Source: an uncultured Candidatus Saccharibacteria bacterium (lineage in GTDB: Bacteria; Patescibacteriota; Minisyncoccia; UBA6257; WO2-44-18). Taken from it: DNA of 64,000 nucleotides. The position numbers were made by a program, and so were the translations under genes. Under the pieces are notes generated by a model, which did no database searches, was not told where the DNA came from, and saw only the letters and a program-made list of their open reading frames with translations. The stretch lies in the NCBI GenBank assembly GCA_964637575.1, contig CAZWVU010000002.1, positions 82,824 to 146,823 of the forward strand. Reading direction: 5' to 3'. Shown here piece after piece: positions 3,874 through 56,348 of the stretch. Numbering within the stretch: position 1 is the stretch's first letter; every line of letters starts with the position of its first letter.

Positions 3874-6798
3874 TTACCGCACATTCACAAGAAATTTCGT
3901 CGTAATAACCTTTCCGGCGCGGCTGAATTGGCCGAATATATAGTAATTTCCTGATGCCGGAAAGAAGAAGTTGCCCGCTTCGATATCCGGCCCAAAGGCG
4001 TTGGGCAGGAAAAGATGCGACTGGTGGACGCTCTCACCGAGAAGCTGGTTCAGGAATGACAGCGGCAGAAGCCCATGGATATGGCGGAAGTTGGAAAGGT
4101 CGTCGCGGACAATGCTGATGTGCATCGGGACGGCAAGATACGGGTTGAGATCAGTAACCGGCTGGCCGTCCTTTTCAATATGGTAGGAAAGCGTCATGGG
4201 ATTACCGGGCTTCGGATTTTTCGGAGCCATGGCCAGCGTTACATCATACCCGTCAAAATTCCCCCTGGTATCAAAGGATTCCGTGGGGCCGCTCATCGCC
4301 GCCGGATTGCCGACGTTCACGTAAAACTGATCGGAGAAAAGCTGGGCGCGCTGCATGAAGTCGACGGAAATCATGTAGTAACCCGGTTTCGGGAACGTGT
4401 ACCTGACCGGGAATTCAGACCGGGCCAGCATGTCCGGCGTCACCGGCCCGGAATCTTCCGGGTGAATATGCGCGAAGACGCTGAAGTCTTTGCTGATGAT
4501 CACCACATGGATAATCCGGTCGTGATCCAGCGTCAGATCCCGGATCGGGCCGTTGGCAATGTTGTCGTGAAGCGTGAAGGTCAATGTCACCGGCATCCCC
4601 GGCATCAACGTTTTTGGATTGACCGCCATCCGGGCGTCAGTACGCGCCGGCCGGATGAAATACGCGAACTCGCGCGGGTCGGCAAAATGATACTGGCCAA
4701 GCCCGAGGCCGATCGTGCAGCCCGGCACCGCCACATCCGACGTCGCCTTCCCCGCCCGCTCCGGCACGCTCTCATGCCAGACATTCATCACATTCTGCTG
4801 TTCGCACTGTTTCTGGAACGCACTTTCCAGCACTCCGGAATGCGCGGCATGCGAACCACCTATGATGTGGAGCACCGCCCACACCCCCACCAGAGGGATC
4901 AGCCATGTTCCCCGCGCGTTGAAATCTATCAGAAGCGGCGCGGCTGCCGGCGCTGCGGCCAGGATGGTCCGGTTTCTCGCGCCGGCAACCCGGTACAGCC
5001 GGAAGGAAACCGCCGCGATGCCCGCCGCCACAAGAATATTCAAGATTTCAAACAATCCGAATCGCCGGTCTTCGGCATGCGCGGAACTGTCGTTGATTTC
5101 CTGCGGGTAATTGACGGTGAACGATGCCGCCGCGTCGTAGGCGCCGCCACGCTTCGCGACAAGATCAATTTTCCAGGTTCCCGCCGGGGAAAGAAGACTC
5201 ATCGGGAAAATATATCCGCCGATAAAGCGCCCGGTAACCGGAGCTATGATCGGGCCGATTCCTTGTTTCTGATTGGTAAGCGTCACCGCCAGATCGTTGA
5301 CCGCCGCCGCTCCGCCGGTTTTTTCATCCTGCAGCTCCACCAGAAATTCCCCGCGTTCATAAGGATGCTGGGTAAGCCGGAGGTCAACGCCCTGACTCAC
5401 CGCTTCCCGCTGGAAACTGAAATTCCGGTCCACTGGCGGCGTGGTGATGATCAGCAGGCCGGTCACGCAAAGAATAGTAAGCCCCATGACCACTTCAGAA
5501 GGCAGCGAGACGCCGAGCCAGAAGATCGCCTTCGCGAGTTTCGGCGTAGGCTGTTTTTGCAGATATCCGGCCGCCAGCGGCTCGAAATACAGCTGATGAA
5601 ATACCCGCAACGCCGCCAGCAGTCCCGCGAACACGCTCAGAATAATGAATGCCTTTCCCCAGTCGGTCGTGAGAAGATTCTGGAAACTCTTTAGATGAAG
5701 CCAGACGATGTACACGCCGGTCACCCCCGCCACGCCGAAGGAAACGCTGGCGATTTTTGAAAAGACCGACATCGCGTAGGCGGCGATCTTCAGATTTTGG
5801 AGCTTTCGCATCACCGGTGCGAGGATCAGCACGAACGCGGCGATCCCGCCGATCCAGATGTCTTTGAAAAAGAGATGAATGAAATTCATCAGGACAGAAA
5901 ACGCCGGCGCAAACGTGGACGCGGCGGCATGGCTGACGCGGGCGCGCGCGAGGGCGGTCAGCGCCAGGATAATCCAGAGCGTCCGTTCCGCCGCGCCGAC
6001 GGTTTCCCCCGCGGCTATTGTTTTTCCGAACATGAGAAAGATACAAAGAAACACGATCGCGCCGATCATCCGGTAGACAGTAAAAAGGCCCGAGACAGTG
6101 TTTACAAACGGAATGAAAACCGCCGAAAACGACGACTCCTGCAGTGTCGCGAGCTCGCTGGTCTTATAGATGAGATAGGAAACGCCTCCGGCAAGCGCCA
6201 GTATCAGTCCGATCACCGCGATCAGGCGGGCGCGCTTCCAGACTGCTTCCTCATGTCCCGAAAGTTCCACGGCGAAAAACTTTTTCCGCATCGGACGCCA
6301 GATGAATGCCAGGACGGCCAACGCGCCCAGCAGGAGTGCCTCGCCGACCAGCTCCAGCGCCACGGTTGCCGCCTCCGGCACACTGGAACTGTGGACGATC
6401 TGGAATTCGGCATTGGACGCGGCGGCCGGACTTTCGGCGCCGACGGAAAATACATACGCTCCCTTTGTGAAGTGGCCGTCATCGGCGGAGATCACCTGCC
6501 AGGAAACCGTGTACGTCCCCTTCCCGCCGTTCATCAGCGCCGCGCCGAAAAGCCGGGCATCATTCGGATTGACGCCGCCATTCCCGATATTCACTTTGGC
6601 GCCATCCGGCCCGAACACGCTGATACTGCTCACTCCCGGCTCGATCCGCTCGCTGAATTGAATACGCACACTGGCCGGCGCGGTGCCCAGCACTGACGAC
6701 GCCTCCGGCGTGTATTGCACCGGCGTCGCGTGCGCGAACGCCGCCGCGGGGAACGCCAGCGCGATTGCCACGCCGCACCATATGAAAATCTTGTTCAT
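3874..6798 (-). CDS. Copper transport protein, CopC-CopD fusion (YcnJ-like) with extra C-terminal periplasmic YtkA-like domains
   Basis: Signal peptide, then a CopC-like cupredoxin fold (HATPVQYTPEASSVL ... SWQVISADDGHFTKGAYVFSV). About 8 TM helices typical of CopD follow. Roughly 480 aa of C-terminal domains with HxH/Met-rich segments and one additional TM follow that. At 974 aa it is much longer than B. subtilis YcnJ (about 540 aa). Confidence 0.75.
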   Translation of the reverse strand: MNKIFIWCGVAIALAFPAAAFAHATPVQYTPEASSVLGTAPASVRIQFSERIEPGVSSISVFGPDGAKVNIGNGGVNPNDARLFGAALMNGGKGTYTVSWQVISADDGHFTKGAYVFSVGAESPAAASNAEFQIVHSSSVPEAATVALELVGEALLLGALAVLAFIWRPMRKKFFAVELSGHEEAVWKRARLIAVIGLILALAGGVSYLIYKTSELATLQESSFSAVFIPFVNTVSGLFTVYRMIGAIVFLCIFLMFGKTIAAGETVGAAERTLWIILALTALARARVSHAAASTFAPAFSVLMNFIHLFFKDIWIGGIAAFVLILAPVMRKLQNLKIAAYAMSVFSKIASVSFGVAGVTGVYIVWLHLKSFQNLLTTDWGKAFIILSVFAGLLAALRVFHQLYFEPLAAGYLQKQPTPKLAKAIFWLGVSLPSEVVMGLTILCVTGLLIITTPPVDRNFSFQREAVSQGVDLRLTQHPYERGEFLVELQDEKTGGAAAVNDLAVTLTNQKQGIGPIIAPVTGRFIGGYIFPMSLLSPAGTWKIDLVAKRGGAYDAAASFTVNYPQEINDSSAHAEDRRFGLFEILNILVAAGIAAVSFRLYRVAGARNRTILAAAPAAAPLLIDFNARGTWLIPLVGVWAVLHIIGGSHAAHSGVLESAFQKQCEQQNVMNVWHESVPERAGKATSDVAVPGCTIGLGLGQYHFADPREFAYFIRPARTDARMAVNPKTLMPGMPVTLTFTLHDNIANGPIRDLTLDHDRIIHVVIISKDFSVFAHIHPEDSGPVTPDMLARSEFPVRYTFPKPGYYMISVDFMQRAQLFSDQFYVNVGNPAAMSGPTESFDTRGNFDGYDVTLAMAPKNPKPGNPMTLSYHIEKDGQPVTDLNPYLAVPMHISIVRDDLSNFRHIHGLLPLSFLNQLLGESVHQSHLFLPNAFGPDIEAGNFFFPASGNYYIFGQFSRAGKVITTKFLVNVR

Positions 6799-9810: not shown

Positions 9811-9839
9811 TTGAAATTTCAAATTTTAAATTTAAAATT
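9811..9839 (+). promoter_or_regulatory. Palindromic promoter/operator: TTGAAA-N17-TAAAAT, with -10 ending 5 nt before the ATG (leaderless-type)
   Basis: A perfect 12-mer palindrome TTGAAATTTCAA and an 18-mer palindrome AATTTTAAATTTAAAATT lie immediately upstream of the HMBD-MauE gene. Confidence 0.45.
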
Positions 9840-9844
9840 GAATT

Positions 9845-10462
9845 ATGTATATCTGCCCGATGCATTCGGAGGTTGTCAGCGACCAGCCGGGCCGCTGTCC
9901 GAAATGCGGCATGCGTTTGGTCCTCCGCGAGAACGCCTCACCTGTCCCGCCTATAGCAGATAAAGGACTCGGAACTCTCACCTGGAAAAATTATCTGCCG
10001 CTGATCCTGATCGTCGGATGTATTCTGGCCGCGACCGCGATATTCTCATGGAGCGATCATCAGTCCGGCTCTTTTTCCATTTTCAAATCAATCGGTTACT
10101 TTATGACCGGATTTTTTCTGGTGTTCTCGTTGTTTAAATTGCTGGACATCAAAGGATTCGCGGAAGGATACTCAACCTATGATCTTCTGGCGCAGAAATG
10201 GTTCGGCTATGGGTATGTCTATCCGTTCGTGGAGCTCGGTTTCGGCCTGGCAATGCTCACCGGAATTCGCACTGCGCCATTTTTACTTGCGGAAATCGCA
10301 GTGATGGCCTTCAGTGGCTTGGGCGTATTAATAAAAATTTTACGGCGTGAGCCGGTGAAATGCGTCTGCCTCGGCACGGTTTTGAAAGTCCCGCTTACCA
10401 CCGTCACCCTCGTTGAAGATTTCGGCATGGCCGCACTCGGCCTTTTACTGCTACTCTTTTAA
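9845..10462 (+). CDS. Heavy-metal-binding domain (YxCPMH ... CPxCGM) fused to MauE/DoxX-family membrane domain
   Basis: N-terminal YICPMHSEVVSDQPGRCPKCGMRL matches the HMBD found on CusB/CopA-type proteins. It is followed by 4 TM helices of DoxX/MauE type. Confidence 0.65.
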   Translation: MYICPMHSEVVSDQPGRCPKCGMRLVLRENASPVPPIADKGLGTLTWKNYLPLILIVGCILAATAIFSWSDHQSGSFSIFKSIGYFMTGFFLVFSLFKLLDIKGFAEGYSTYDLLAQKWFGYGYVYPFVELGFGLAMLTGIRTAPFLLAEIAVMAFSGLGVLIKILRREPVKCVCLGTVLKVPLTTVTLVEDFGMAALGLLLLLF

Positions 10463-10469
10463 AATAACT

Positions 10470-10539
10470 GCGAAGTCTTCTGTTCTTCCCGCAGACAGGA
10501 TTGTAGCCCGACGTCCTGTCGAGGAGAAGAACAGAAGAC
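10470..10539 (+). repeat. Hairpin repeat element copy A: conserved 37-nt core CCGCAGACAGGATTGTAGCCCGACGTCCTGTCGAGGA inside a 14-bp outer stem
   Basis: Identical over 70 nt to the inverted copy at 11950-12019. The same core also occurs at 55537-55601 with different but self-complementary outer stems. Confidence 0.8.
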
Positions 10540-10599
10540 GAGCCACCTTGTTGACCGAACCCTATCTTTTGTGGCGTAACTGTGCTACAGTAGGCGCAC

Positions 10600-11934
10600 A
10601 TGAATAAAGAGGAATCGCAGAACGTCAGTTTTACCTCTCTTGGTATCGCTCCGGCGCTCTTAGAAACATTAACCCGCCTCAAATACGTCACCCCTACGCC
10701 GATTCAGGCGCAGGCAATTCCGGTTGCCGTAACCGGAAAAGATGTGGTCGGGATCGCCCAAACCGGCACCGGCAAGACGCTCGCCTTCGGTATTCCGATG
10801 ATCCAGCGCCTCTCCCAGATCAAGGGAAAAGGCCTGATCGTGTTGCCTACCCGCGAACTCGCCGACCAGGTGGAGGAAACAATCAAAAAGATCGGCAACA
10901 ACCACGTCCGCACCGCGCTTCTGATCGGCGGCGCTTCGATGTTTGCCCAGAAGCAGGCTATTATGCGCGATCCGCATATCGTCATCGCCACCCCGGGCCG
11001 CCTCATCGATCATATGGAACAGCGCAATATCAGCCTTGGTAAAGTGGAGATTCTGGTGCTTGATGAAGCCGACCGTATGTTTGACATGGGATTCGCCCCG
11101 CAACTCCGCAAGATCATGGACGCCATTCCGAAAGAACGCCAGACCATGCTTTTCTCCGCGACGATGCCGCCGGAGATCATGAAGATTGCGAGCGGCCACA
11201 TGAAACTCCCCGTCCGCGTGGAAGTCGCCCCCGCCGGCACGACTGCCGACCGCGTCACCCAGGAAATTTTCATGGTGCGCAAGGAGGAGAAGAACCGCCT
11301 CGTCGAAAAATTACTCACCCAATATCCGGTGACCACGCTGATCTTTACCCGCACGAAATTCGGCGCGAAGCGCCTGGCCCGCACCATCCGCGATATGGGA
11401 TCCACCGCCGCCGAACTCCACTCCGACCGTTCGCTCGGCCAGCGCCGCGAAGCGCTGGATGGTTTCAAGACCGGCAAGTATCGCGTCCTTGTCGCGACCG
11501 ATATCGCCGCGCGCGGCATCGACGTTACCGGCATCGGCCTCGTCCTTAACTATGATCTTCCGATGAACACCTCCGACTACGTGCACCGCATCGGCCGCAC
11601 GGCCCGCGCCGGCGCCGGAGGCCATGCCATTTCCTTTGTGGCGCCCGAACAGCGCGGCGAAGTGCGCGAGATCGAACGCCTCATCAAGAAGAGTCTGCCG
11701 CTTTCCAAGATGCCTACGGATCTTCCGCCTGCCCGCGTACAGGAGCGTCCCCAGTATTTTGAAGAAGAACGCCCCCGTTTCGGCCGCGGACGCCGTCCAG
11801 GTTTTGGTTCCCGTCCGTCCCGTCCCGGTTTCGGATCGCGCCCTTCATTTGGCAGCCGTCCGCATGGCCCGCGTCCCGCCGGATCTTCCGATGGCCGCTC
11901 CTCATTCCCCCGCCGGCGTTTCCGCCGCGGCTAA
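10600..11934 (+). CDS. DEAD-box ATP-dependent RNA helicase with C-terminal RG/RGG-rich tail
   Basis: Q-motif region, AQTGTGKT (motif I), PTRELA, DEAD, SAT and HRIGRTARAG are all present. The C-terminal 80 aa are rich in RGRRPGFGSRPSRPGFGSRP. Confidence 0.95.
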   Translation: MNKEESQNVSFTSLGIAPALLETLTRLKYVTPTPIQAQAIPVAVTGKDVVGIAQTGTGKTLAFGIPMIQRLSQIKGKGLIVLPTRELADQVEETIKKIGNNHVRTALLIGGASMFAQKQAIMRDPHIVIATPGRLIDHMEQRNISLGKVEILVLDEADRMFDMGFAPQLRKIMDAIPKERQTMLFSATMPPEIMKIASGHMKLPVRVEVAPAGTTADRVTQEIFMVRKEEKNRLVEKLLTQYPVTTLIFTRTKFGAKRLARTIRDMGSTAAELHSDRSLGQRREALDGFKTGKYRVLVATDIAARGIDVTGIGLVLNYDLPMNTSDYVHRIGRTARAGAGGHAISFVAPEQRGEVREIERLIKKSLPLSKMPTDLPPARVQERPQYFEEERPRFGRGRRPGFGSRPSRPGFGSRPSFGSRPHGPRPAGSSDGRSSFPRRRFRRG

Positions 11935-11949
11935 GGACTGGCTTGTCTT

Positions 11950-12019
11950 GTCTTCTGTTCTTCTCCTCGACAGGACGTCGGGCTACAATCCTGTCTGCGG
12001 GAAGAACAGAAGACTTCGC
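11950..12019 (-). repeat. Hairpin repeat element copy B (inverted orientation), immediately 3' of the helicase stop
   Basis: Reverse complement is identical to copy A over 70 nt. It is followed by TTCGCTTTTATTTT, so it may act as the helicase terminator. Confidence 0.8.
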
Positions 12020-12053
12020 TTTTATTTTAAAAAAAATGATATAGTATGAACGC

Positions 12054-12461
12054 ATGGCAAAATCATTCGCATCATTTGTAATAATAATTCTGGTCATCAT
12101 CGCGGCCGCGGTGTTCATTACGACGGGAAGCCGGACCACCGTCCCCGCCCCGCTGAAAACCGCTGACGTCAGCTCGGCGACCGGACAGGTTAAGGAATTC
12201 ACCGTCGTCGGCCAGAATTATTCCTTCACCCCATCCACCATCACCGTCAATAAAGGCGACCATGTGAAAATCACGTTCAAGAACGTGGACGGGTTCCACG
12301 ACTTCCGCATTGATGAATTCCAGGCGGCTACCCGCCGCATCTCCGCGGGACAGGAAGACGCCGTTGAATTCACCGCTGACAAAACCGGGACGTTTGAATA
12401 CTACTGTTCGGTCGGCGGCCACCGCATGATGGGCATGCGCGGTTCGCTGATTGTCCAATAA
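12054..12461 (+). CDS. Membrane-anchored cupredoxin (type-1 blue copper protein)
   Basis: N-terminal TM, then a cupredoxin fold carrying the Cu ligand set: His (GFHDF), Cys (YYCSVGGH), His and Met (MMGM). Confidence 0.75.
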   Translation: MAKSFASFVIIILVIIAAAVFITTGSRTTVPAPLKTADVSSATGQVKEFTVVGQNYSFTPSTITVNKGDHVKITFKNVDGFHDFRIDEFQAATRRISAGQEDAVEFTADKTGTFEYYCSVGGHRMMGMRGSLIVQ

Positions 12462-12469
12462 TCTCATGT

Positions 12470-12940
12470 ATGAAAATTAGAGTCGGCGCGCCTGCTCCCG
12501 ATTTCACCCTCGTTGACCAGCGCGGGAAATCGCATACGCTTTCTGATTATAAAGGCGGCTGGGTATTGGTATATTTTTATCCGAAAGATGATACACCGGG
12601 TTGTACGAAAGAAGCCTGCGCTATCCGTGACAATTTCCCCGCGTTCAAAAAAATGAAGGCGCTGGTGTTCGGCATCAGCGCCGACTCCGAAAAGAGCCAC
12701 GCGAAATTCATTGAAAAATACGATCTGCCATTCACGCTCCTTTCCGATCCGGATAAAAAAGTTTTAAAGGCATACGGCGTCTGGGCCAAAAAGAAATTTA
12801 TGGGACGGGAATATATGGGCATCCTCCGGACTTCTTTTCTGATCCATCCTTCCGGCACAATCGCAAAAATATACGAAAAAGTAGCGCCGGAAACCCACGC
12901 CGGCGAAGTGCTGGCGGACCTGAAAGAACTTCGCCGCTAA
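12470..12940 (+). CDS. bcp: Thiol peroxidase Bcp (peroxiredoxin Q type)
   Basis: FYPKDDTPGCTKEACAIRD holds the peroxidatic and resolving Cys in the Bcp arrangement; 156 aa. Confidence 0.9.
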   Translation: MKIRVGAPAPDFTLVDQRGKSHTLSDYKGGWVLVYFYPKDDTPGCTKEACAIRDNFPAFKKMKALVFGISADSEKSHAKFIEKYDLPFTLLSDPDKKVLKAYGVWAKKKFMGREYMGILRTSFLIHPSGTIAKIYEKVAPETHAGEVLADLKELRR

Positions 12941-18344: not shown

Positions 18345-18923
18345 TCATCTGGCGGGAGGAAACACCTGTCTCACCTCTCCGCATTCCAGCATTTCCTTGC
18401 CGAAATACGGATTTCGGACCGGCCCTTCGCATTGCAGCCAACTGGCGCCGGTATTGTTAAACGCCATGCCGCAATACACCTGCTGCACCGGCCCCAGATA
18501 GGTATGACCGACCAGGGCGACCGCGAGCATCATCGAGTTTGAAATACCGGCAAAGTGGGCACGAAGTTCAATAAGATCAGCCCGCTTCGTGTACTTCGGT
18601 ATGTCGAGAAGATTCTTTCTGGCCAGCTCCCAGTCGGCTTTTTGCGGCGATTTGGAGACAAATACCACGTCGTTCATTTCCGCCACTGCCGACTCCCAAT
18701 TCTGTTCTGCCCGAAAGGCGGCGACCGCGTCGTCACCGGCCAGTGCCCGGCCCATCACAAAGTAATGGCCGAGAACATTGGAAACCGCCTGCCGGCACGG
18801 ACCAGGCATCGTATTGCCCTTGCGGCCGTCGGGAACCAGGAGGACCGCCAGTCCGGCCAGCGCGAACACAAGGCACGCTCCGATAATGAACCGCCGGAAA
18901 CCATTCTTCATACCGCACCTCAA
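18345..18923 (-). CDS. Secreted/membrane-anchored protein, possibly DUF3347-like metal-associated
   Basis: N-terminal TM. The C-terminal segment YCGMAFNNTGASWLQ ... NPYFGKEMLECGE resembles the CPMA ... NPY(F/Y)G ... CG end of DUF3347 proteins. Confidence 0.3.
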   Translation of the reverse strand: MRCGMKNGFRRFIIGACLVFALAGLAVLLVPDGRKGNTMPGPCRQAVSNVLGHYFVMGRALAGDDAVAAFRAEQNWESAVAEMNDVVFVSKSPQKADWELARKNLLDIPKYTKRADLIELRAHFAGISNSMMLAVALVGHTYLGPVQQVYCGMAFNNTGASWLQCEGPVRNPYFGKEMLECGEVRQVFPPAR

Positions 18924-23301: not shown

Positions 23302-25641
23302 TTAAAGCTTGTTTAACAATGGTATGGCCGCCCGCAGATCGGCCCGCGCGTTCCGCATCGGCGACCAGACATCGCCAAGCTTTTTGATCCGCGCCGGCAT
23401 GGTGCGAATGTTGAATCTTCCCGGATTAAGGCGGGCGGTCACCTCCGTCCAGCGTAAAGGAGCTGATGCGAGCGCGCCCGGAACAGGCCGGAGACTGTAC
23501 GGCGCCGCCTGGGTTTTCTCGCGGCTGTTTTGAAGGTAGTCTATATACACTTTTTTCTGCCGGTGTTTTGGCAGACGCTCAAGACTAGTAAAATCCCTGG
23601 TGTTCGCGTGCACAATCGTCGCGACCAGTTCCGCGAAATCACCGGATTCTTCGAACGTATACCGGGCGCCCAGGGGTATATATATGTGGATTCCCCGCTT
23701 TCCGGAGGTCTTCGGAAAATGCGGAACGCCGGCGGCCTCCAAAACGCTGTGAATGGCCCGCGCCGTTTTTACCACGAAGGAAAAATCGATATCCTCCGGG
23801 TCGAGATCCAGAATGCAGTAATCCGGCCGGTCCAGACTTCCCACGCGCGAACTCCACGGGTTGATTTCAATGCACCCAAGATTCACCATGTACAGCACTG
23901 AATCGATGCCGTCGCACACCAGATATTCGACCGTCTTTTGATTGCTCTTCGAATACACGGACACGGTCTTGATCCAATCCGGCGCGATCGGCCCCACATT
24001 CTTATGATAGAAATGCATTCCGTTGATACCTTCGGGAAAACGGTTCAACGATTGCGGCCGGTTCAGTACATACGGAAGCAGCACCCCGCTTACCGCGCGG
24101 TAATAATCCGCGACGTCGCCTTTGGTGTATCCTTCCTCCGGCCAGAAAATCTTGTCGGCGTGATGAATGATAAATTCGGGACTGTTTTTTACCGGCGTTT
24201 CCCTGACCACTTTTTTGGGATCCTTATCTTCACGAAGGCCCACGAAGATCGGCTGGCGCATATGTCCTGTTTCTGTCCATTCCCGGAAGGTGATCTCGGC
24301 CACCAGCTTCGGAGTAAGCCAATGAACCGGCGCGTTTGTTTTCGGCGGATTCCCGAAGGGGGATTTTTTTGTTTCGAGCGGCGCCAGCCGCCTGCGCAAA
24401 AGTTCCAAATTCCCGAGCTTCCCTCCCGTGTGCCCGACATAGCGCAGCGTGCCGTCCCGGTCGTATACGCCCAGCACAAGGGCGCCGAGAAATTTCCGGC
24501 CGCCGCGGGGTTCCGTGAATCCCGCGATTACCGCTTCCTGCCGCGGATGGGTTTTGATTTTCAGCCATTCCCGGCTCCGCACTCCCGTCAGATATGCGCT
24601 CGCCCCGTTTTTCGCAATGATTCCTTCAAGGCCGGCCTTTTCCGCTCCCCGGAAAAGCTCCTTTCCCGATTCCTCCACGTAGTCATTGAAAAAAATCGAG
24701 AGGGTCTTTCTGGGGATTACGTTCCGGAGAAGTTCCTTCCGCTCGGCGAGCGTTTTACGCCGCACGTCCTCCCCGTCCAGTTCGAGAATGTCGAATACGT
24801 AATAGCGGAGCGCGCCGTTCCCGCTTTTCAGATAATTCTGCAGTAACTGGAATGACGGCCGTCCCTGGGTATCAACTACCACGATCTCCCCGTCCAGCAC
24901 TGCTTCGAGGCGGAACGTTTCGAGCTCCCGGACGATCGGATCGAACTCGGCGGTGAAATTGCTGGCGCCGCTCCGCGAGTAGAGCGTGACGTGTTTATTC
25001 CTGCAGACCGCAACGGCCCGGAACCCGTCCCATTTCGGCTCGAAGATCCATCCCTTCCGGTTGAACGGCCCCTCTGCGAGCGAAGCCAGCATCGGCTTGA
25101 TGGGAAGCGAAAGCGACGGGGCCACCCGGGGCGCCCGGACGGCGGCCTCGTCGTGCTTCTTGATGAGCAGCCAGGTGTTTTTCCCGGCGCCCGCCATCCG
25201 CACCAGCGTGAAGGTTCCTTTCAATTTTTTTCCTTCAAGAAAGAAATCGATGTGGCCTTTTTTCAGACCGTTGAGCGCCGCAGCCTCGGTCTCCTTCGGA
25301 TCTTCGCCGCCGGGAAGATGATAGGTTCCCGAATCCCAGACGGAAACCAGTCCGGCTCCGTAGTTTCCCTCCGGGATGACGCCTTCGAACGTCCGGTATT
25401 CGAGCGGATGATCCTCGGTCATAACCGCCAGTCGCTTTTCATCAGGATCCCGCGAAGGACCTTTGGGCACCGCCCAGCTTTTCAAAACGCCGTCCATTTC
25501 CAGCCGCACATCATAGTGCACGCGCGACGCGTAATGCTTTTGCACCACGAAACGCAGCGGTCCGGCGCGGTGCGTCCGCCGGCCGGCCGGCTCGGGAGTT
25601 TTCGCGAACGCTCGCTTTCTCCGGTACTCCTTCAGCGCCAT
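23302..25641 (-). CDS. ligD: Multidomain ATP-dependent DNA ligase LigD (phosphoesterase-ligase-polymerase/primase order)
   Basis: PE domain HYDVRLEMDGVLKSWAVPKGPS, a ligase core with K-x-DG-type adenylation region (EPKWDGFRA), and a C-terminal primase-polymerase (LigD Pol) domain. The start is assigned to the ATG at 25641 (MALKEYRRKRAF). Confidence 0.9.
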   Translation of the reverse strand: MALKEYRRKRAFAKTPEPAGRRTHRAGPLRFVVQKHYASRVHYDVRLEMDGVLKSWAVPKGPSRDPDEKRLAVMTEDHPLEYRTFEGVIPEGNYGAGLVSVWDSGTYHLPGGEDPKETEAAALNGLKKGHIDFFLEGKKLKGTFTLVRMAGAGKNTWLLIKKHDEAAVRAPRVAPSLSLPIKPMLASLAEGPFNRKGWIFEPKWDGFRAVAVCRNKHVTLYSRSGASNFTAEFDPIVRELETFRLEAVLDGEIVVVDTQGRPSFQLLQNYLKSGNGALRYYVFDILELDGEDVRRKTLAERKELLRNVIPRKTLSIFFNDYVEESGKELFRGAEKAGLEGIIAKNGASAYLTGVRSREWLKIKTHPRQEAVIAGFTEPRGGRKFLGALVLGVYDRDGTLRYVGHTGGKLGNLELLRRRLAPLETKKSPFGNPPKTNAPVHWLTPKLVAEITFREWTETGHMRQPIFVGLREDKDPKKVVRETPVKNSPEFIIHHADKIFWPEEGYTKGDVADYYRAVSGVLLPYVLNRPQSLNRFPEGINGMHFYHKNVGPIAPDWIKTVSVYSKSNQKTVEYLVCDGIDSVLYMVNLGCIEINPWSSRVGSLDRPDYCILDLDPEDIDFSFVVKTARAIHSVLEAAGVPHFPKTSGKRGIHIYIPLGARYTFEESGDFAELVATIVHANTRDFTSLERLPKHRQKKVYIDYLQNSREKTQAAPYSLRPVPGALASAPLRWTEVTARLNPGRFNIRTMPARIKKLGDVWSPMRNARADLRAAIPLLNKL

Positions 25642-25642
25642 A

Positions 25643-26416
25643 TTACGTGTTGACCCGCCGGCGTTCGATGCTGCGCCGCAGAAGTGCGGCAAGATCCTTG
25701 GCGTGGGTGGGTTTCGCCGGTCCCTCCTTGGCGGGCGGTTTTTGTCCGCGCGCTTTTCTCCTGATTACCTCGCGCAGTTCGGCAAGATACGTGTCTTTGA
25801 ATTCGCTGCCCCGGAAAGGCTTGCTAAGTTTCTGAATCAGCTGGGTAGCCATCTCAAGCTCCGCATTGCTTACCTGCTCCTTTTTCGGCAGATTGAGTTT
25901 GCTTGCCGGCTCAACTTCTTCCGCGTAGCGCATCTGGTTCAATACGAGCGCCTTGCCTTCCGCGGTTAACGCGCCGAGATGCTGCCGGTTGCGGATGACG
26001 AAGGTGGCGATTCCCACCGTTCCCGTTTTTCTGAGCGCTTCCTGGAAAAGGACGTAGGCCTTTTCGGCTCCTTTCTCCGGCTCGATATAATATGGTTTTT
26101 CGAAATATTTCGGATCGATTTCCTTGAGTTTGGAAAAGCTGTGAAGGGTGATGGCGCTCGTTTTTTTCGGGTTCGCGTTTTTGAAATCCTCATCGGTGAG
26201 CACGATGTACCGGTTTCCGTATTTGAAACCCTTCACGATATCTTCGTAAGGAACTTCCTTTTGCTCATCTTTACAGACGCGGGCGTATAGGATCGGCGAA
26301 AGGTCGGCGCGGTGCAGCATATCCAGATCCAGTTTTTCTTCCGGAGACGCGCTATAGAGCCGAACAGGGATGTTCACCAATCCGAAGCTTATTGATCCTG
26401 ACCATAGCGATCTCAT
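25643..26416 (-). CDS. ku: Ku protein (NHEJ)
   Basis: Canonical Ku N-terminus MRSLWSGSISFGLVNIPVRLYSA. The gene abuts LigD. Confidence 0.95.
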   Translation of the reverse strand: MRSLWSGSISFGLVNIPVRLYSASPEEKLDLDMLHRADLSPILYARVCKDEQKEVPYEDIVKGFKYGNRYIVLTDEDFKNANPKKTSAITLHSFSKLKEIDPKYFEKPYYIEPEKGAEKAYVLFQEALRKTGTVGIATFVIRNRQHLGALTAEGKALVLNQMRYAEEVEPASKLNLPKKEQVSNAELEMATQLIQKLSKPFRGSEFKDTYLAELREVIRRKARGQKPPAKEGPAKPTHAKDLAALLRRSIERRRVNT

Positions 26417-27214: not shown

Positions 27215-28240
27215 CTACTTCAGATGCATGTAACTCTCCAGGTTGTGGATAGAAAACCCCCCGAAGGCCGTTTTAGAAATGAACGCCGCGGCAATCCGTT
27301 TCATTTCAATTTTCATCGCCTCCTTGGTCATTCCCAAAAATGTCACCTTCGGCGGATCGGCATCGGTGGTTTCCTGGCCGATGATTACTTTTACCCGCGG
27401 CGCGTACTGACTGGCGTAATCGATCTCGCCCTGGGCGTGGGCGATCGAGCCGTCATCCCCGCGCGCGAAATTGCGGTAATCCATAAGCACGACATACCCG
27501 TTGGCAATCTGGTTCAGCTCATCCATCAGGAACAATCCGGCGCCTTTCGCCGACTGATCGCGCCAGGAGACGATGCTGGTGGCGTTCTCGCCGTCCAGCC
27601 AATACGTCGCGGTAAACCCCAGCTTGAAACCCTGCTCCGCCAGTCCGGCGGTGGTGTTATATTTGGCGACGATCGCGTCCGCCATGTCCAGATACTGCTG
27701 CAAACCTTTCGTCTCCCGGCCGTTAAAATCCTCCTGGCCGTACGGCTCAACGTCGAACTGGATTCCGTCGAATCTGGCCTGGGCCGGCGCGGTCCGGTTG
27801 TAATCAAGGACTGAATCGAAAAAGTCCAGCGGCGTGCTCCGGTAATCGGGCAATGACCAGTCGGGATCTCCGCCGAGCGCCTGCACCTGGATGCCGCGCG
27901 CATGCGCGGAAATAATAAAACTGGCGACAACCTGCTGGCGGTCATGCAAATCTTTTGTAATTCCGTCTCCCGAATAAATATAGATGGAGGAAATATGTTC
28001 CTGCGCGGCAAATGCGAGCAGCTCCTCTTTCCGGGCGTCGTTGAACTGCCAGGGCGGCGTCCACAACCAGGTCGCGATGGGAACTTTTTCCAGATCGACG
28101 CTGTTCACCCGCGCCACCTCTTCCGACACCATCGCCTGCTGGTGGCTGTGATCGATATAACCGGAAACATACACATACAGCACGCCCGCCACCGCCGCGA
28201 AATAAAGAAGGTTCCGCACTGATTTTGGAATGTTAATCAT
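27215..28240 (-). CDS. Membrane-anchored glycoside-hydrolase-like TIM-barrel protein (GHL10-like)
   Basis: N-terminal TM after the internal start MINIPKSV. The remainder has alternating beta/alpha barrel-like segments and lies next to the GT2 synthases. The family call is low-confidence. Confidence 0.4.
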   Translation of the reverse strand: MINIPKSVRNLLYFAAVAGVLYVYVSGYIDHSHQQAMVSEEVARVNSVDLEKVPIATWLWTPPWQFNDARKEELLAFAAQEHISSIYIYSGDGITKDLHDRQQVVASFIISAHARGIQVQALGGDPDWSLPDYRSTPLDFFDSVLDYNRTAPAQARFDGIQFDVEPYGQEDFNGRETKGLQQYLDMADAIVAKYNTTAGLAEQGFKLGFTATYWLDGENATSIVSWRDQSAKGAGLFLMDELNQIANGYVVLMDYRNFARGDDGSIAHAQGEIDYASQYAPRVKVIIGQETTDADPPKVTFLGMTKEAMKIEMKRIAAAFISKTAFGGFSIHNLESYMHLK

Positions 28241-29465
28241 GGTCCCGAAGTTTGATGATGCCCGTGTTTTCCGCGCTGAACGCCATTTTGAAATAGGTAT
28301 AGACCCCAAGCGGCACCAGGATCATCACCTGGAACAGCGCGTAGAGCGGGAACAGCAGATAGAAGGGTTTCGCTTTTTTCCAGTGGAAAAGAAAGATGAT
28401 GCCAAGGTACAGGACTACCACCACCGGTATGACCAGCGGGTATTCGATCACTTCATACCAGCGGATCGGGGTGAGTAGATACACAAGAAACGTCGAGTAA
28501 AAAAAGTAGAGCGGGTGCCGCCAGGTGTACTGATGGGCATTCACCACGGCGTGGCGAAACTCCCCGCCGAACCAGATCATCCTCTGCCGCACCCAGGCGC
28601 GGAAGGTTCTCGGCACGTCAGTGTAAAATGTGAACGCGATATGCCCAACCTTGTAGCCCACCATTTTCGCGAGCTTTCCGATTTCAATGTCTCCCCCGCT
28701 GAAAAAGAGCGAATGATGGCCCATTACTTCTTTCATGATATTGGTTTTCGCGATCATCGCTGCCCCGGAAGTAAGCCACGGATAAATCCGCCGCGCGTCC
28801 ATCGCGAGTTCGTACTCCACCGACTGGAGTTTTTCGATGATGGTTTCGGACCGGGACGCGAGCACACGCACGGAGGCAAGATCGAAATCTTTCTGTTTCA
28901 TGAATCCCACCAGCTGATACAGGCTTTCCTCGGCCGTGGTGTCGCCGTCAATGAAAATTGAATACGCGGTCGTCACGACGCGGGAGCTTTCCCTCATGAT
29001 TTCGTCGCGGGCCTCTTCGCTGAGCGTGTAGATTGCTTCCTGATAAGCGGGGGTGTTCGGTGTGCGGGCCTGAAGCGTGGAAGTAAACAGCCGCCAGGGA
29101 TTGGGCGATGCTCCTTTGGACGAGGAAATGGGAACCTGCGAGCGGTAGATCGCGAAGTGGTATTGCTTCGCCAGGGCTTCGATCTGCGCGTTGAATTCGG
29201 GCCGCTCTTTGGTGGTGGTGCAAAGAAGCACCCTGCCCGGATACTGGCTGAGAAACGCGAGATTCCGGAGATACCGCATATCGCCGAAAATCGGGATCAG
29301 GATGGTGAAATCATCGCAGTCCTGGACTTTACCGGCGGGGATCACGGCGGTTTTCGCGAGCTTTGAGCGTATGATGGTGACAAAATCGACCAGAGAAAGA
29401 AGGAGCGGGATGAGAATATAAGGCGTGGCGGCAAGCAGTGGGATGTGGAAAATGTTCATTTGCAA
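28233..29465 (-). CDS. Processive family-2 glycosyltransferase (cellulose/chitin/PNAG-synthase-like), membrane-embedded
   Basis: DxD (IDGDT) and Q-x-x-RW (VRQRMIW) motifs are present, with an N-terminal TM and C-terminal TMs. It is a paralogue of the gene at 31272-32486. Confidence 0.85.
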   Translation of the reverse strand: MQMNIFHIPLLAATPYILIPLLLSLVDFVTIIRSKLAKTAVIPAGKVQDCDDFTILIPIFGDMRYLRNLAFLSQYPGRVLLCTTTKERPEFNAQIEALAKQYHFAIYRSQVPISSSKGASPNPWRLFTSTLQARTPNTPAYQEAIYTLSEEARDEIMRESSRVVTTAYSIFIDGDTTAEESLYQLVGFMKQKDFDLASVRVLASRSETIIEKLQSVEYELAMDARRIYPWLTSGAAMIAKTNIMKEVMGHHSLFFSGGDIEIGKLAKMVGYKVGHIAFTFYTDVPRTFRAWVRQRMIWFGGEFRHAVVNAHQYTWRHPLYFFYSTFLVYLLTPIRWYEVIEYPLVIPVVVVLYLGIIFLFHWKKAKPFYLLFPLYALFQVMILVPLGVYTYFKMAFSAENTGIIKLRDHD

Positions 29466-31271: not shown

Positions 31272-32486
31272 TCATAAAAAATTGGCGTCATTATCGCGGA
31301 ATTTTATCATTCCGGTGTTCTCCGTGGTGAACGCCATTTTGAAATATGCATACATGCCAAGCGGCACCAGCACCATCACCTGGAACAGCGCGTAGAACGG
31401 AAAAATCAGATAGAAAAGACGGGCACGCCTCCAGTGAAACGCCAGGATCAGAAACCAGTAGAGAAAAATAACGATCGGGATAATGACCGGTCTCTTCACC
31501 GCCTCGTACCAGCGGATCGGCGCCAGGGCGTACACCAGAATCGTATTGTAGAAATAAAAAAGCGGATGCTTCCAGGAGTACTGGTGCGCATTGATCACCG
31601 CATGGCGGAATCCCCCGCCGAACCAGACGACCCGCTGGCGGAACCAGGCGCGGAAGGTCCGCGGCACGTCGGTATAAAATGTGAACGCGATATGGCCGAC
31701 CTTATACCCCGCCATTTTCGCGAGCTTCCCGATTTCGATATCGCCGCCGCTGAAGAAGAGCGAGTGGTGGCCCATAATCTCTTTCATCACCCCGGTTTTC
31801 GCGATCATCGCGGCACCTGACGTCAGCCAGGGATATATCTTCCGGGCATCCATCGCCAGTTCGTACTCCACGGACTGGAGCTTTTCCATCATCGTGTCCG
31901 CTTTCGAGGCCAGGACCCGCACCGACGCCAGGTCGAATTTTTTTTCTTCCATCAGGCCCGCCAACCGGTCCAGCGGTTTGCGGGTTACCGTATCGCCGTC
32001 GATCAGGATGGAGTATTTCGTAGTCACGACGCGGGAACCTTCCTGCATGATTTCATCGCGCGCCTCGTCGCCCAGTTCGTATTGCCAAACGTCGTCATCC
32101 TCATCTTTGGTCTGGGTGAGCGTTGAGGAAAAAATTCTCCAGGGATTTGGCCTGGCCTTGGAGGAAGCGATCGGCACGCTGGACCGGTAAATATTGAATC
32201 CGTGTTCGGCAGCAATCGCTTTCAGCCGCTCGTTAAACGTGCGCGTTTCCCGGGTGGTAGTGCATAACAGGACCTTACTGCCGTAGGGCTTCAGAAATTC
32301 GACGTTTTTCAGATAGCGGATACTTCCAAAAATAGGCAAAAGAATGGTAAAATCATCGGACTGCGGACCGTCCGAAGACACCTCCGCCGCGTTGGAAAAT
32401 TTTGCGCGGAGAATGATAATGAAGTCCGCAAGCGAAAGCAGGAGGGGAATAGCGATATACGGAGCCACTGCCAAAAAATTATTCAT
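31272..32486 (-). CDS. Processive family-2 glycosyltransferase, paralogue of 28233-29465
   Basis: Same architecture and motifs (IDGDT, FRQRVVW) as the paralogue. The conserved motif TGaTACCAT, an extended -10, ends 10 nt before its ATG. Confidence 0.85.
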   Translation of the reverse strand: MNNFLAVAPYIAIPLLLSLADFIIILRAKFSNAAEVSSDGPQSDDFTILLPIFGSIRYLKNVEFLKPYGSKVLLCTTTRETRTFNERLKAIAAEHGFNIYRSSVPIASSKARPNPWRIFSSTLTQTKDEDDDVWQYELGDEARDEIMQEGSRVVTTKYSILIDGDTVTRKPLDRLAGLMEEKKFDLASVRVLASKADTMMEKLQSVEYELAMDARKIYPWLTSGAAMIAKTGVMKEIMGHHSLFFSGGDIEIGKLAKMAGYKVGHIAFTFYTDVPRTFRAWFRQRVVWFGGGFRHAVINAHQYSWKHPLFYFYNTILVYALAPIRWYEAVKRPVIIPIVIFLYWFLILAFHWRRARLFYLIFPFYALFQVMVLVPLGMYAYFKMAFTTENTGMIKFRDNDANFL

Positions 32487-55487: not shown

Positions 55488-55495
55488 ACCACATA

Positions 55496-55527
55496 AAAAT
55501 CGCCCTGTGAGGGGGCGGTTTTTATTT
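55496..55527 (+). terminator. Intrinsic terminator
   Basis: CGCCC-TGTGAGG-GGGCG followed by GTTTTTATTT. Confidence 0.5.
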
Positions 55528-55536
55528 ACTAATGAA

Positions 55537-55601
55537 GCTCCGCCTCCTTCCCGCAGACAGGATTGTAGCCCGACGTCCTGGCGAGGAGAAGGAGGCGGAG
55601 C
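55537..55601 (+). repeat. Hairpin repeat element copy C (same 37-nt core, one substitution; different but complementary outer stem CTCCGCCTCCTTC / GAAGGAGGCGGAG)
   Basis: The core CCGCAGACAGGATTGTAGCCCGACGTCCTGGCGAGGA is shared with copies A and B. Outer stem sequences differ yet remain perfectly complementary. Confidence 0.75.
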
Positions 55602-55610
55602 TGTGGTAAT

Positions 55611-56348
55611 ATGGAGGGTATGAAAAAAAGCACCTCCTGGGGCGGAGAATCCGTCGTCGGGCATTACCAGCAGCATGTGATCCTTCCGAACCTCACCCGC
55701 CTGATCGCGCCAAAAAAAGGCGAGTTGATTGTTGATCTCGGCTGCGGCGAAGGTTTTTTTGCAAAGAAATTTGCCCACGACGGCGCGCAGGTCATCGGCT
55801 TCGACGTCTCGAAAGAGCTGATCGAAAAAGCGAAAGAAACCGCCGGGAAAAATGAAGAATACCATGTCGGCTCCGCCGAGCGGCTTCCCCTGCTCAAAAA
55901 CAGCGCTGCCGACAAAATTACCATCATTCTTGCCATTCAGAATATGGATAATGCCCACGCCGTGCTCAAAGAGTGCCATCGTATCCTGAAGCCGGGCGGC
56001 AGGCTTTACATCGTGATGAACCACCCGGCCTTCCGCGTGCCGAAAGCGAGCGACTGGGTTTGGGATGAAGCCAATCAGATCCAGTACCGCCGCGTGGATT
56101 CTTATTTGAGCGAGTCCAAAGCGAAGATCGAAATGCATCCCGGCGAAAAAAACAGCGAGTACACCATTTCCTTCCACCGGCCGCTCCAGCTCTATTTCAA
56201 ACTGCTCAAAAACGCCGGATTCTGCGTGACGAACTTGGAGGAATGGATTTCCGACAAAAAAAGCGAGCCGGGACCGCGCGCGGAAGCTGAAAACCGCACC
56301 CGGAAAGAAATTCCGCTTTTTCTTTTTCTGGAGGCAAATAAGGTATAA
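55611..56348 (+). CDS. Class I SAM-dependent methyltransferase
   Basis: SAM-binding motif I VDLGCGEGFF, with an acidic residue after beta-2 (GFDVS). Confidence 0.85.
   Translation: MEGMKKSTSWGGESVVGHYQQHVILPNLTRLIAPKKGELIVDLGCGEGFFAKKFAHDGAQVIGFDVSKELIEKAKETAGKNEEYHVGSAERLPLLKNSAADKITIILAIQNMDNAHAVLKECHRILKPGGRLYIVMNHPAFRVPKASDWVWDEANQIQYRRVDSYLSESKAKIEMHPGEKNSEYTISFHRPLQLYFKLLKNAGFCVTNLEEWISDKKSEPGPRAEAENRTRKEIPLFLFLEANKV

Follow-up and report, generated by a model that had tools for sequence, protein, structure and literature searches.

The DNA analysed here is a 64-kb window of a Patescibacteria (candidate phyla radiation, CPR) genome with a GC content of 54.7%, and the assignment to Patescibacteria was made from a DEAD-box helicase gene in the window and from its neighbouring genes. 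The helicase gene (10600-11934, + strand) is bracketed by two hairpins in opposite orientations, copy A upstream and copy B downstream, and a third hairpin with the same core, copy C, lies upstream of a methyltransferase gene. An initial annotation of the window had described these hairpins and proposed that they control the helicase or make its segment invertible. The helicase itself is not part of the element. With moderate confidence, we interpret the hairpins as copies of a small non-autonomous interspersed palindromic repeat of one Patescibacteria clade, similar to repetitive extragenic palindromic (REP) sequences and REPINs or to miniature inverted-repeat transposable elements (MITEs), and moved in trans.

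Copy A as a whole (10461-10543, + strand) starts with a 5' extension (AAAATAACTGCGAA, 10461-10474), followed by a pyrimidine-rich 5' arm (10475-10488), a 37-nt core (10489-10525), a purine-rich 3' arm (10526-10539), and a GAGC 3' end (10540-10543). Its 3' boundary was set by alignment to a hairpin-free region of a relative (L009, see below), and its 5' boundary is uncertain by about 6 nt. The core consists of the internal-loop bases CCGCA, the inner stem GACAGGA/TCCTGTC, a 13-nt loop (TTGTAGCCCGACG), and the internal-loop bases GAGGA. Copy B (11950-12028, − strand) has its hairpin at 11950-12014, its core at 11964-12000, and its 5' extension, on the minus strand, at 12015-12028. It has no GAGC 3' end and carries a duplicated AAGAC in its place. 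On the plus strand the hairpin of copy B is followed by CTTCGCTTTTATTTT, with a U-rich tract (TTTTATTTT) at 12020-12028. Copy C (55525-55602, + strand) is made up of a 5' extension (TTTACTAATGA, 55525-55535), a 5' arm (AGCTCCGCCTCCTTC, 55536-55550), the core (55551-55587), and a 3' arm (55588-55602), and its core differs from that of copy A by one base (T to G at core position 31).

The core CCGCAGACAGGATTGTAGCCCGACGTCCTG(T/G)CGAGGA occurs exactly three times in the window, as had been annotated, and none is expected by chance (0/100 shuffles). Alignment confirmed 100% identity between copy A (10470-10539) and copy B (11950-12019, reverse strand), a stretch of 70 nt. The two copies lie on either side of the helicase, and the inverted repeat reaches 10457-10545 and 11944-12032 (89 nt, 96%). 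The outer stems are GTCTTCTGTTCTTC/GAAGAACAGAAGAC in copies A and B and AGCTCCGCCTCCTTC/GAAGGAGGCGGAGCT in copy C; the initial annotation had swapped this assignment. It had also called the stem of copy C entirely different but still complementary. The arms are indeed complementary, but the 4 bp adjoining the core (CTTC/GAAG) are common to A/B and C, and therefore the conserved block is 45 nt long. The fold is common to all copies and has a 14-15-bp outer stem, an internal loop that is asymmetric, with CC paired and GCA and GA unpaired, a 7-bp inner stem (GACAGGA/TCCTGKC, already recognized in the initial annotation), and a 13-nt loop. Predicted free energies of the window copies are -41 to -44 kcal/mol for the RNA hairpins (z about -6 to -7) and -22 to -25 kcal/mol for the DNA hairpins (z -5.8 to -7.3), and z-scores across all five copies described below, with RNA and DNA folds, range from -4 to -7.

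Related genomes had been suggested as one place to look for the core, and two more copies were found there. When the GTDB species representatives were scanned with a 19-nt piece of the core, the matches were one true locus and one chance match in a coding region. The true locus is in a metagenome-assembled genome labelled Saccharibacteria (L002, GC 47%), which holds copy L2-1 upstream of tuf and copy L2-2 on the opposite strand, just past the fusA stop codon. An EF-Tu search placed L002, the window genome, L010/L024, L017, and L023 in one clade, and the EF-Tu identities to L002 are 91% for the window genome (P0246), 92% for L010/L024, 94% for L017, 94% for L019/L022, and 96% for L023. There are thus three copies in the 64-kb window and two in 21 kb of L002/L025, and no canonical copy was found in about 80 kb from four related genomes. 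The copies in both genomes share the 5' extension AAATAACTnAAGCGARG and the 3' end GAYGAGC, giving an element of about 76-85 bp; the hairpin that had been annotated is real, and the element is longer.

Searches of wider collections gave no further copies. A covariance model (R1) was built and run over 186 kb plus 21 kb, and it found the five known copies and one weak match in L017. At the gathering threshold of Rfam, the only matches in the window were two tRNAs, and none was at the element; with a lenient E-value there were only sub-threshold look-alikes of miRNA precursors (30 bits or less, against cut-offs of 60-100). The element thus matches no known RNA family in Rfam, a collection that covers ribozymes, OMEGA/IS RNAs, and CPR motifs, and it has no conserved REP units at the base of the stem. 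Exact-core scans of JGI metagenomes gave chance matches only, of which two groups fell within or close to coding regions, scans of IMG/VR with three core sub-patterns gave nothing real, and a blastn search of plasmids and phages with the 89-nt repeat gave no match. An 18-nt piece of the core loop (GATTGTAGCCCGACGTCC) was found at L004 5058-5075, L007 712-729, and L008 601-618. These matches lie in an AT-rich intergenic stretch of an unrelated organism (60% GC) in three JGI samples, and since no hairpin surrounds the sequence we treated them as chance matches.

Although the window genome and L002 differ by 7.5% in GC content and by 9% in EF-Tu, the 45-nt core is nearly the same in both. Compared with copy A, it is identical at 44/45 positions in copy C, 44/45 in L2-1, and 43/45 in L2-2. 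The stems of the two L002 copies are CCGCCCTTCTTC/GAAGAAGGGCGG and, with one bulge, GCTTATCC-TTCTTC/GAAGAAGG-G-ATGAGC, and both pair. In a five-row alignment with four distinct stems (A/B, C, and the two of L002), 93% of the cells are paired and 8 of the 16 outer-stem pairs have changed on both sides; values as high were reached in 0/500 shuffles, and controls with slid partners were far lower, but as the statistics rest on four distinct sequences they are indicative, not conclusive. In the distal part of the stems most positions differ and pairing is kept. The inner stem is invariant except for an A:U to A.G change in three copies, and where pairing departs from Watson-Crick, at a few positions, the forward strand has U-G or A.G. 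These data support the earlier suggestion that the structure is under selection, together with a sequence constraint on the apical part.

Two other readings of the core were rejected. A 25-codon ATG...TAA frame runs through the hairpin of copy C (55532-55609, + strand; MKLRLLPADRIVARRPGEEKEAELW), and the same frame is also open in A and L2-1. However, L2-1 has no start codon in this frame, and covarying stems are unlike the evolution of a coding sequence. On inspection the core fits no consensus of a K-turn, hammerhead, twister, or box C/D motif, and none of these was matched in Rfam.

Some sequences in related genomes resemble parts of the element. The weak match of the covariance model (11.3 bits) is at L017 8533-8604 (− strand), and the same sequence is present at L018 1746-1817. 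It has the intergenic position and strand of L2-2, just after fusA, and reads CCGCAG-[different 9-bp stem, 27-nt loop]-CGAGG, with the CC/GCA...GA/GG junction geometry of the element. About two motifs of this CCGCAG/CGAGG type are expected by chance per 64 kb. The look-alike could be coincidental, or it could represent a relic or a second subfamily. The loop of the element and the terminator of a helicase orthologue (L009 3210-3235; ACAGCCCGACGGGGCTGT plus a T run) have the 9-mer AGCCCGACG in common, probably by chance.

The region upstream of tuf gives filled and empty versions of the same site. The tuf promoter (TTGACA-18-TATACT) and leader are near-invariant in L002, L017, L019/L022, L023, and L024. 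At four sites (L023, L017, L019/L022, and L024) a terminator is followed by 17-20 nt and then by the promoter, while L002 has about 78 additional bases between the terminator and the -35 box, which are the element. The junctions in L002, compared with the four empty sites, have no direct repeat that would indicate target duplication, and the empty sites contain no pre-existing palindrome. The stem thus travels with the element, and the idea that the core inserts into pre-existing hairpins was rejected. A second comparison is possible upstream of the helicase. The orthologue in L009 (86% identity) aligns with the window from 10544 (CAC..TTGAC..CTATCTTTTGTGGCGT) to the start codon, but the hairpin is absent, and the flanks of copy A compared with L009 show no target duplication. 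A helicase orthologue at 75% identity (L010/L011) likewise retains the upstream sequence starting at CAC..TTGAC and has no hairpin either. AAATAA precedes three of the five copies, and it may be part of the element itself.

Judged from these alignments, the whole hairpin including its stem arrives as an insertion into intergenic DNA, in gaps between a terminator and a promoter, and its presence is polymorphic at two orthologous sites, upstream of tuf and upstream of the helicase. The initial annotation had distinguished the hairpins from plain REP sequences. Comparison of filled with empty sites points to an interspersed mobile repeat, though one that departs from the formal definitions of REP sequences and MITEs.

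All five copies are intergenic and adjacent to unrelated genes. On its left and right, copy A has the HMBD/MauE gene and the helicase, B the helicase and a cupredoxin gene, C a DUF4383 gene and the methyltransferase, L2-2 fusA and a membrane open reading frame (ORF), and L2-1 the membrane ORF and tuf. Relative to local transcription, three copies are forward and two are reverse. The placements originally annotated were reproduced: copy A begins 8-13 nt past the HMBD/MauE stop codon (10460-10462), copy B is followed by its U-rich tract, and 9 nt separate the end of copy C from the first methyltransferase ATG (55611). Copies C and L2-1 are each downstream of a canonical terminator and upstream of a promoter, which for C are the terminator at 55495-55523 and the methyltransferase extended -10 element at 55604-55612. 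Copies B and L2-2 lie 5-15 nt past the stop codons of the helicase and fusA, where relatives carry ordinary terminators. In each inverted pair (A/B and L2-1/L2-2) the members are about 1.5 kb apart and are each other's closest relatives, suggesting local duplication in inverted orientation.

The initial annotation had proposed a cis-regulatory RNA dedicated to the helicase, for example a cold-shock 5' untranslated region (UTR). Placement, with A and B flanking the gene, is the one observation in its favor. Against it, the 86% and 75% orthologues have no element, and in both the window and L002 the same element is found next to unrelated genes, including the methyltransferase, fusA, and tuf. 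Moreover, an extended -10-like sequence TGcTACAGT (10583-10591, + strand; TGgTAGAAT in L009) is located 8 nt before the helicase ATG, downstream of copy A, and from its sequence it probably works as the helicase promoter. Since copy A is upstream of this likely and near-leaderless promoter, it would not be in the helicase 5' UTR, barring read-through from the upstream gene. A dedicated helicase regulator is thus extremely improbable, and by the comparison of orthologous loci the hairpins are not a control element of this gene. A hairpin that flanks a gene and has covarying stems need not regulate that gene.

In four genes of the window (HMBD/MauE, the helicase, cupredoxin, and the methyltransferase) a -10 or extended -10 element ends 6-8 nt before the ATG. 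These sites are TAAAAT (9811-9847), TGcTACAGT (10583-10602), TGaTATAGT (12037-12056), and TGgTAATAT (55604-55622). Their closeness to the ATG, with no Shine-Dalgarno sequence between, suggests leaderless mRNAs. The tuf genes of the related loci have a leader of about 70 nt, unlike these four window genes.

The covarying fold could also mean that the host keeps the hairpin as a portable structured-RNA module, such as a terminator, a stabilizer, an RNase III site, or a protein-binding hairpin whose core is an RNA-protein site. The strength of the fold and the near-identical core in two diverged genomes agree with this explanation, as do the non-Watson-Crick positions, which are U-G or A.G on the forward strand. 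The forward strand also folds slightly better than the reverse strand (-41.3 vs -37.5 and -44.3 vs -40.9 kcal/mol). Copies B and L2-2 follow the helicase and fusA stop codons where relatives have ordinary terminators, and the U-rich tract after B also points in this direction; from the T-rich sequence there, copy B may have been recruited as the helicase terminator. However, a terminator scan flagged none of the copies. The terminal loop is 13 nt, and a T-rich tail is found on the reverse strand only, beginning 5-6 nt after the stem, unlike an intrinsic terminator with its GC-rich stem, short loop, and U tract directly after. In addition, the copies are three forward and two reverse to transcription, C and L2-1 lie between a canonical terminator and a promoter, where little transcription is expected, close relatives have no element at the same sites, and no Rfam family matches. 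We consider a host-kept RNA module possible but unlikely. It and the mobile repeat are not mutually exclusive.

Copies A and B might also be recombination sites, homologous or site-specific, that make the 1.4-kb helicase segment invertible. The gene does lie between inverted repeats that are perfect over 70 bp and extend to 89 bp at 96% identity, and L002 has a second inverted pair about 1.5 kb apart. Furthermore, Logan unitigs of four samples break inside the repeat, so that the k=31 graph leaves the orientation unfixed. On the other hand, a Pfam search of the window found no invertase or recombinase, and the assembled orientation is the ancestral one in L010. The arms of the L002 pair have diverged, copy C is solitary, and the pairs face opposite ways, with the 3' ends inward in the window and the 5' ends inward in L002. 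Because the promoter-like site and the whole ORF are within the segment, flipping would not switch helicase expression. Inversion between the 70-bp repeats is physically plausible, but we consider it very unlikely that A and B are recombination sites of this kind.

The Logan unitigs that contain the helicase and the cupredoxin block (L001, L012-L015) are from SRR8931202, SRR8931230, SRR8931233, and SRR8931234, and the same strain is present in all four runs. In all four samples the unitigs end inside the hairpin core, so the element is a systematic breakpoint of k=31 assembly.

The pair could be thought to bound mobile cargo, but gene order does not agree with this. The order DUF5652, helicase, 168-aa ORF (60% identity), GNAT, DUF5317, and Obg is common to the window and L010, and this synteny shows that the helicase has kept its ancestral position and orientation. 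A homologue of the ORF that separates fusA from tuf in L002 is likewise found at the equivalent position of L017, which has no canonical hairpins, and the far ends of the extra gene blocks carry no relic copies of the element. Cargo between paired hairpins was therefore rejected.

On both sides of the helicase lie genes related to copper and redox chemistry (3874-6798, 9845-10462, 12054-12940, and 18345-18923), which encode a CopC-CopD fusion, HMBD-MauE, cupredoxin, an AhpC-type peroxiredoxin, and DUF3347. As these genes are absent from the syntenic region of L010, the lineage has gained genes at either flank of it. Elsewhere in the window, a Ku gene is next to a full-length LigD gene with phosphoesterase, ligase, and primase-polymerase domains (23302-26416, − strand), so that this small CPR genome has a complete gene pair for non-homologous end joining. 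Two paralogous genes for family-2 glycosyltransferases (28233-29465 and 31272-32486, − strand) are 3051 bp apart and contain stretches of 75-82% DNA identity (repeat families D1-D3).

The interpretation of the hairpins as a non-autonomous mobile repeat is supported by the filled and empty sites, their patchy distribution, their occurrence in both orientations, their intergenic sites beside unrelated genes, and the lack of target duplication. It is also supported by the conserved core with covarying stems, the close relationship within each inverted pair, the ancestral state of the bracketed genes, the stability of the hairpin as DNA and as RNA, and the lack of a matching RNA family. By analogy with known systems, the element would move as a single-stranded hairpin through an enzyme whose gene lies in another part of the genome. 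The best model for this enzyme would be an HUH/Y1 single-strand transposase of the IS200/IS605-RAYT type, because IS200/IS605 TnpA and RAYT recognize hairpins and insert without target duplication. Such an enzyme might read the apical module, in which CC/GCA, the inner stem, the loop of 13 nt, and GA/GG are invariant, and need the outer stem only as a paired structure. If propagation requires both an intact core and a paired stem, this would account for a core that is 43-45/45 identical beside freely covarying stems, and selection for being copied could keep core and pairing without host benefit. Effects on neighboring genes, for example by copy B as helicase terminator, would be by-products of insertion. 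New copies would tend to land about 1.5 kb away and inverted, hence the pair A/B around the helicase.

Several observations weigh against this interpretation. The enzyme is hypothetical, as no transposase, recombinase, HUH/Y1_Tnp, integrase, invertase, or Nop domain was found by Pfam among the approximately 65 ORFs of the window. Five copies (four distinct) are known, which may be low for a REP-like family, and conservation runs in the opposite direction to that in REPINs (PMC3337134). Moreover, all four distinct stems keep a 5' arm that is 80-92% pyrimidine and a 3' arm that is 80-92% purine, an asymmetry for which a constraint on pairing alone is insufficient. Intrastrand template switching during replication could also keep the arms complementary without selection.

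A bolder proposal starts from the 45-nt apical module, which might be recognized by a Patescibacteria protein not yet described, either an enzyme specific for hairpins or an RNA-binding protein. In that case the element would represent a new class of mobile modules carried by a hairpin, with an outer stem that covaries within the pyrimidine-5'/purine-3' asymmetry. The host would put the element to use as a portable terminator or insulator between its many leaderless genes, and the L017 look-alike would be a second specificity class. We regard this proposal as speculative and decidedly unlikely.

Reduced Patescibacteria genomes carry few repeats, and to our knowledge, after a search of the literature, interspersed palindromic repeats in this group are essentially undescribed. 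The element provides a clean example of filled and empty sites of a palindromic repeat in a CPR clade. Besides breaking short-k assemblies, it can leave a single gene enclosed by perfect inverted repeats, and because it lies immediately upstream of promoters it may influence expression or rearrangement.

Unlike MITEs, the element has terminal arms that differ among copies, with no conserved terminal inverted repeats and no target duplication. The window contains no parent insertion sequence for an element of the MITE type, and no plasmid, phage, or viral match was found. IS200/IS605 elements, which transpose as single strands by "peel and paste", and their non-autonomous derivatives (PATEs) have two distinct subterminal hairpins, at the left and right ends, and insert 3' of a fixed 4-5-nt target. 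The element resembles them in the absence of target duplication and in relying on a hairpin rather than on terminal inverted repeats, and short conserved bases at the foot of the hairpin (here CCGCA/GAGGA and GCGARG/GAYGAGC) could guide or be the site of cleavage. It differs in being a single hairpin with only a hint of a target (AAATAA), and no TnpA or TnpB was found. Correia elements (CREE) of Neisseria carry conserved inverted repeats of 26 bp at their ends together with a TA duplication, and the ERIC sequences of enterobacteria are conserved along their whole length. Like ERIC/IRU and Correia elements, the element is an imperfect palindrome of about 100 bp that is intergenic, occurs in both orientations, and shows presence/absence polymorphism, with possible side effects on termination, promoters, and RNA processing. 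As in ERIC, its sequence is conserved across species, but neither ERIC nor Correia has a covarying stem around an invariant core. Integron attC sites, which form arrays of one orientation, show the opposite conservation pattern (basal R''/R' boxes and a variable center); with mixed orientations and no integrase in the window, attC was rejected.

Variable palindromic stems around a conserved, structured interior also recall stem-loop TIGR arrays (PMC12045711), and CPR bacteria also carry TIGR systems. The element could then be a guide-RNA-like unit whose variable arms set targets, as in TIGR-Tas or in the bridge RNA of IS110. However, TIGR units are in tandem beside a Tas (Nop) gene, and their loops hold variable spacers and box C/D motifs (PMC12045711). 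The element copies are dispersed singletons with an invariant loop and no box C/D motifs, and no gene or domain of Nop/Tas or IS110 was found in the window. Each arm is complementary to its partner arm and to no other site in the window. A TIGR-Tas unit was thus rejected, and a guide-RNA function in general has next to no probability.

REP sequences and REPINs are present in tens to hundreds of copies per genome. Like those of the REP/REPIN-RAYT systems of Pseudomonas and Enterobacteria (PMC3337134, PMC3116915), the hairpins described here are short (about 90 bp), extragenic, near-perfect, and formed by a single strand. They are also non-autonomous, occur in both orientations, and combine one conserved part with one variable part that keeps the hairpin; in REPINs no two spacers are identical, and every one forms a hairpin (PMC3337134). 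There are, however, clear differences. The basal REP units of REPINs are conserved and the apical spacer is variable, whereas in the element the apical 45 nt are invariant and the basal stem is variable. At its foot, where REP sequences have a conserved head of the GTAG type, the hairpin has none, and the GTAG of the element is found only in the loop. No RAYT gene was seen in the window, the copies found so far are few, and the host belongs to the CPR. The element thus behaves like REP/REPIN, ERIC, and Correia sequences but lacks features that define them, and it is a previously undescribed family. Its invariant apex and covarying stem, the reverse of the REPIN arrangement, point to a different logic of recognition.

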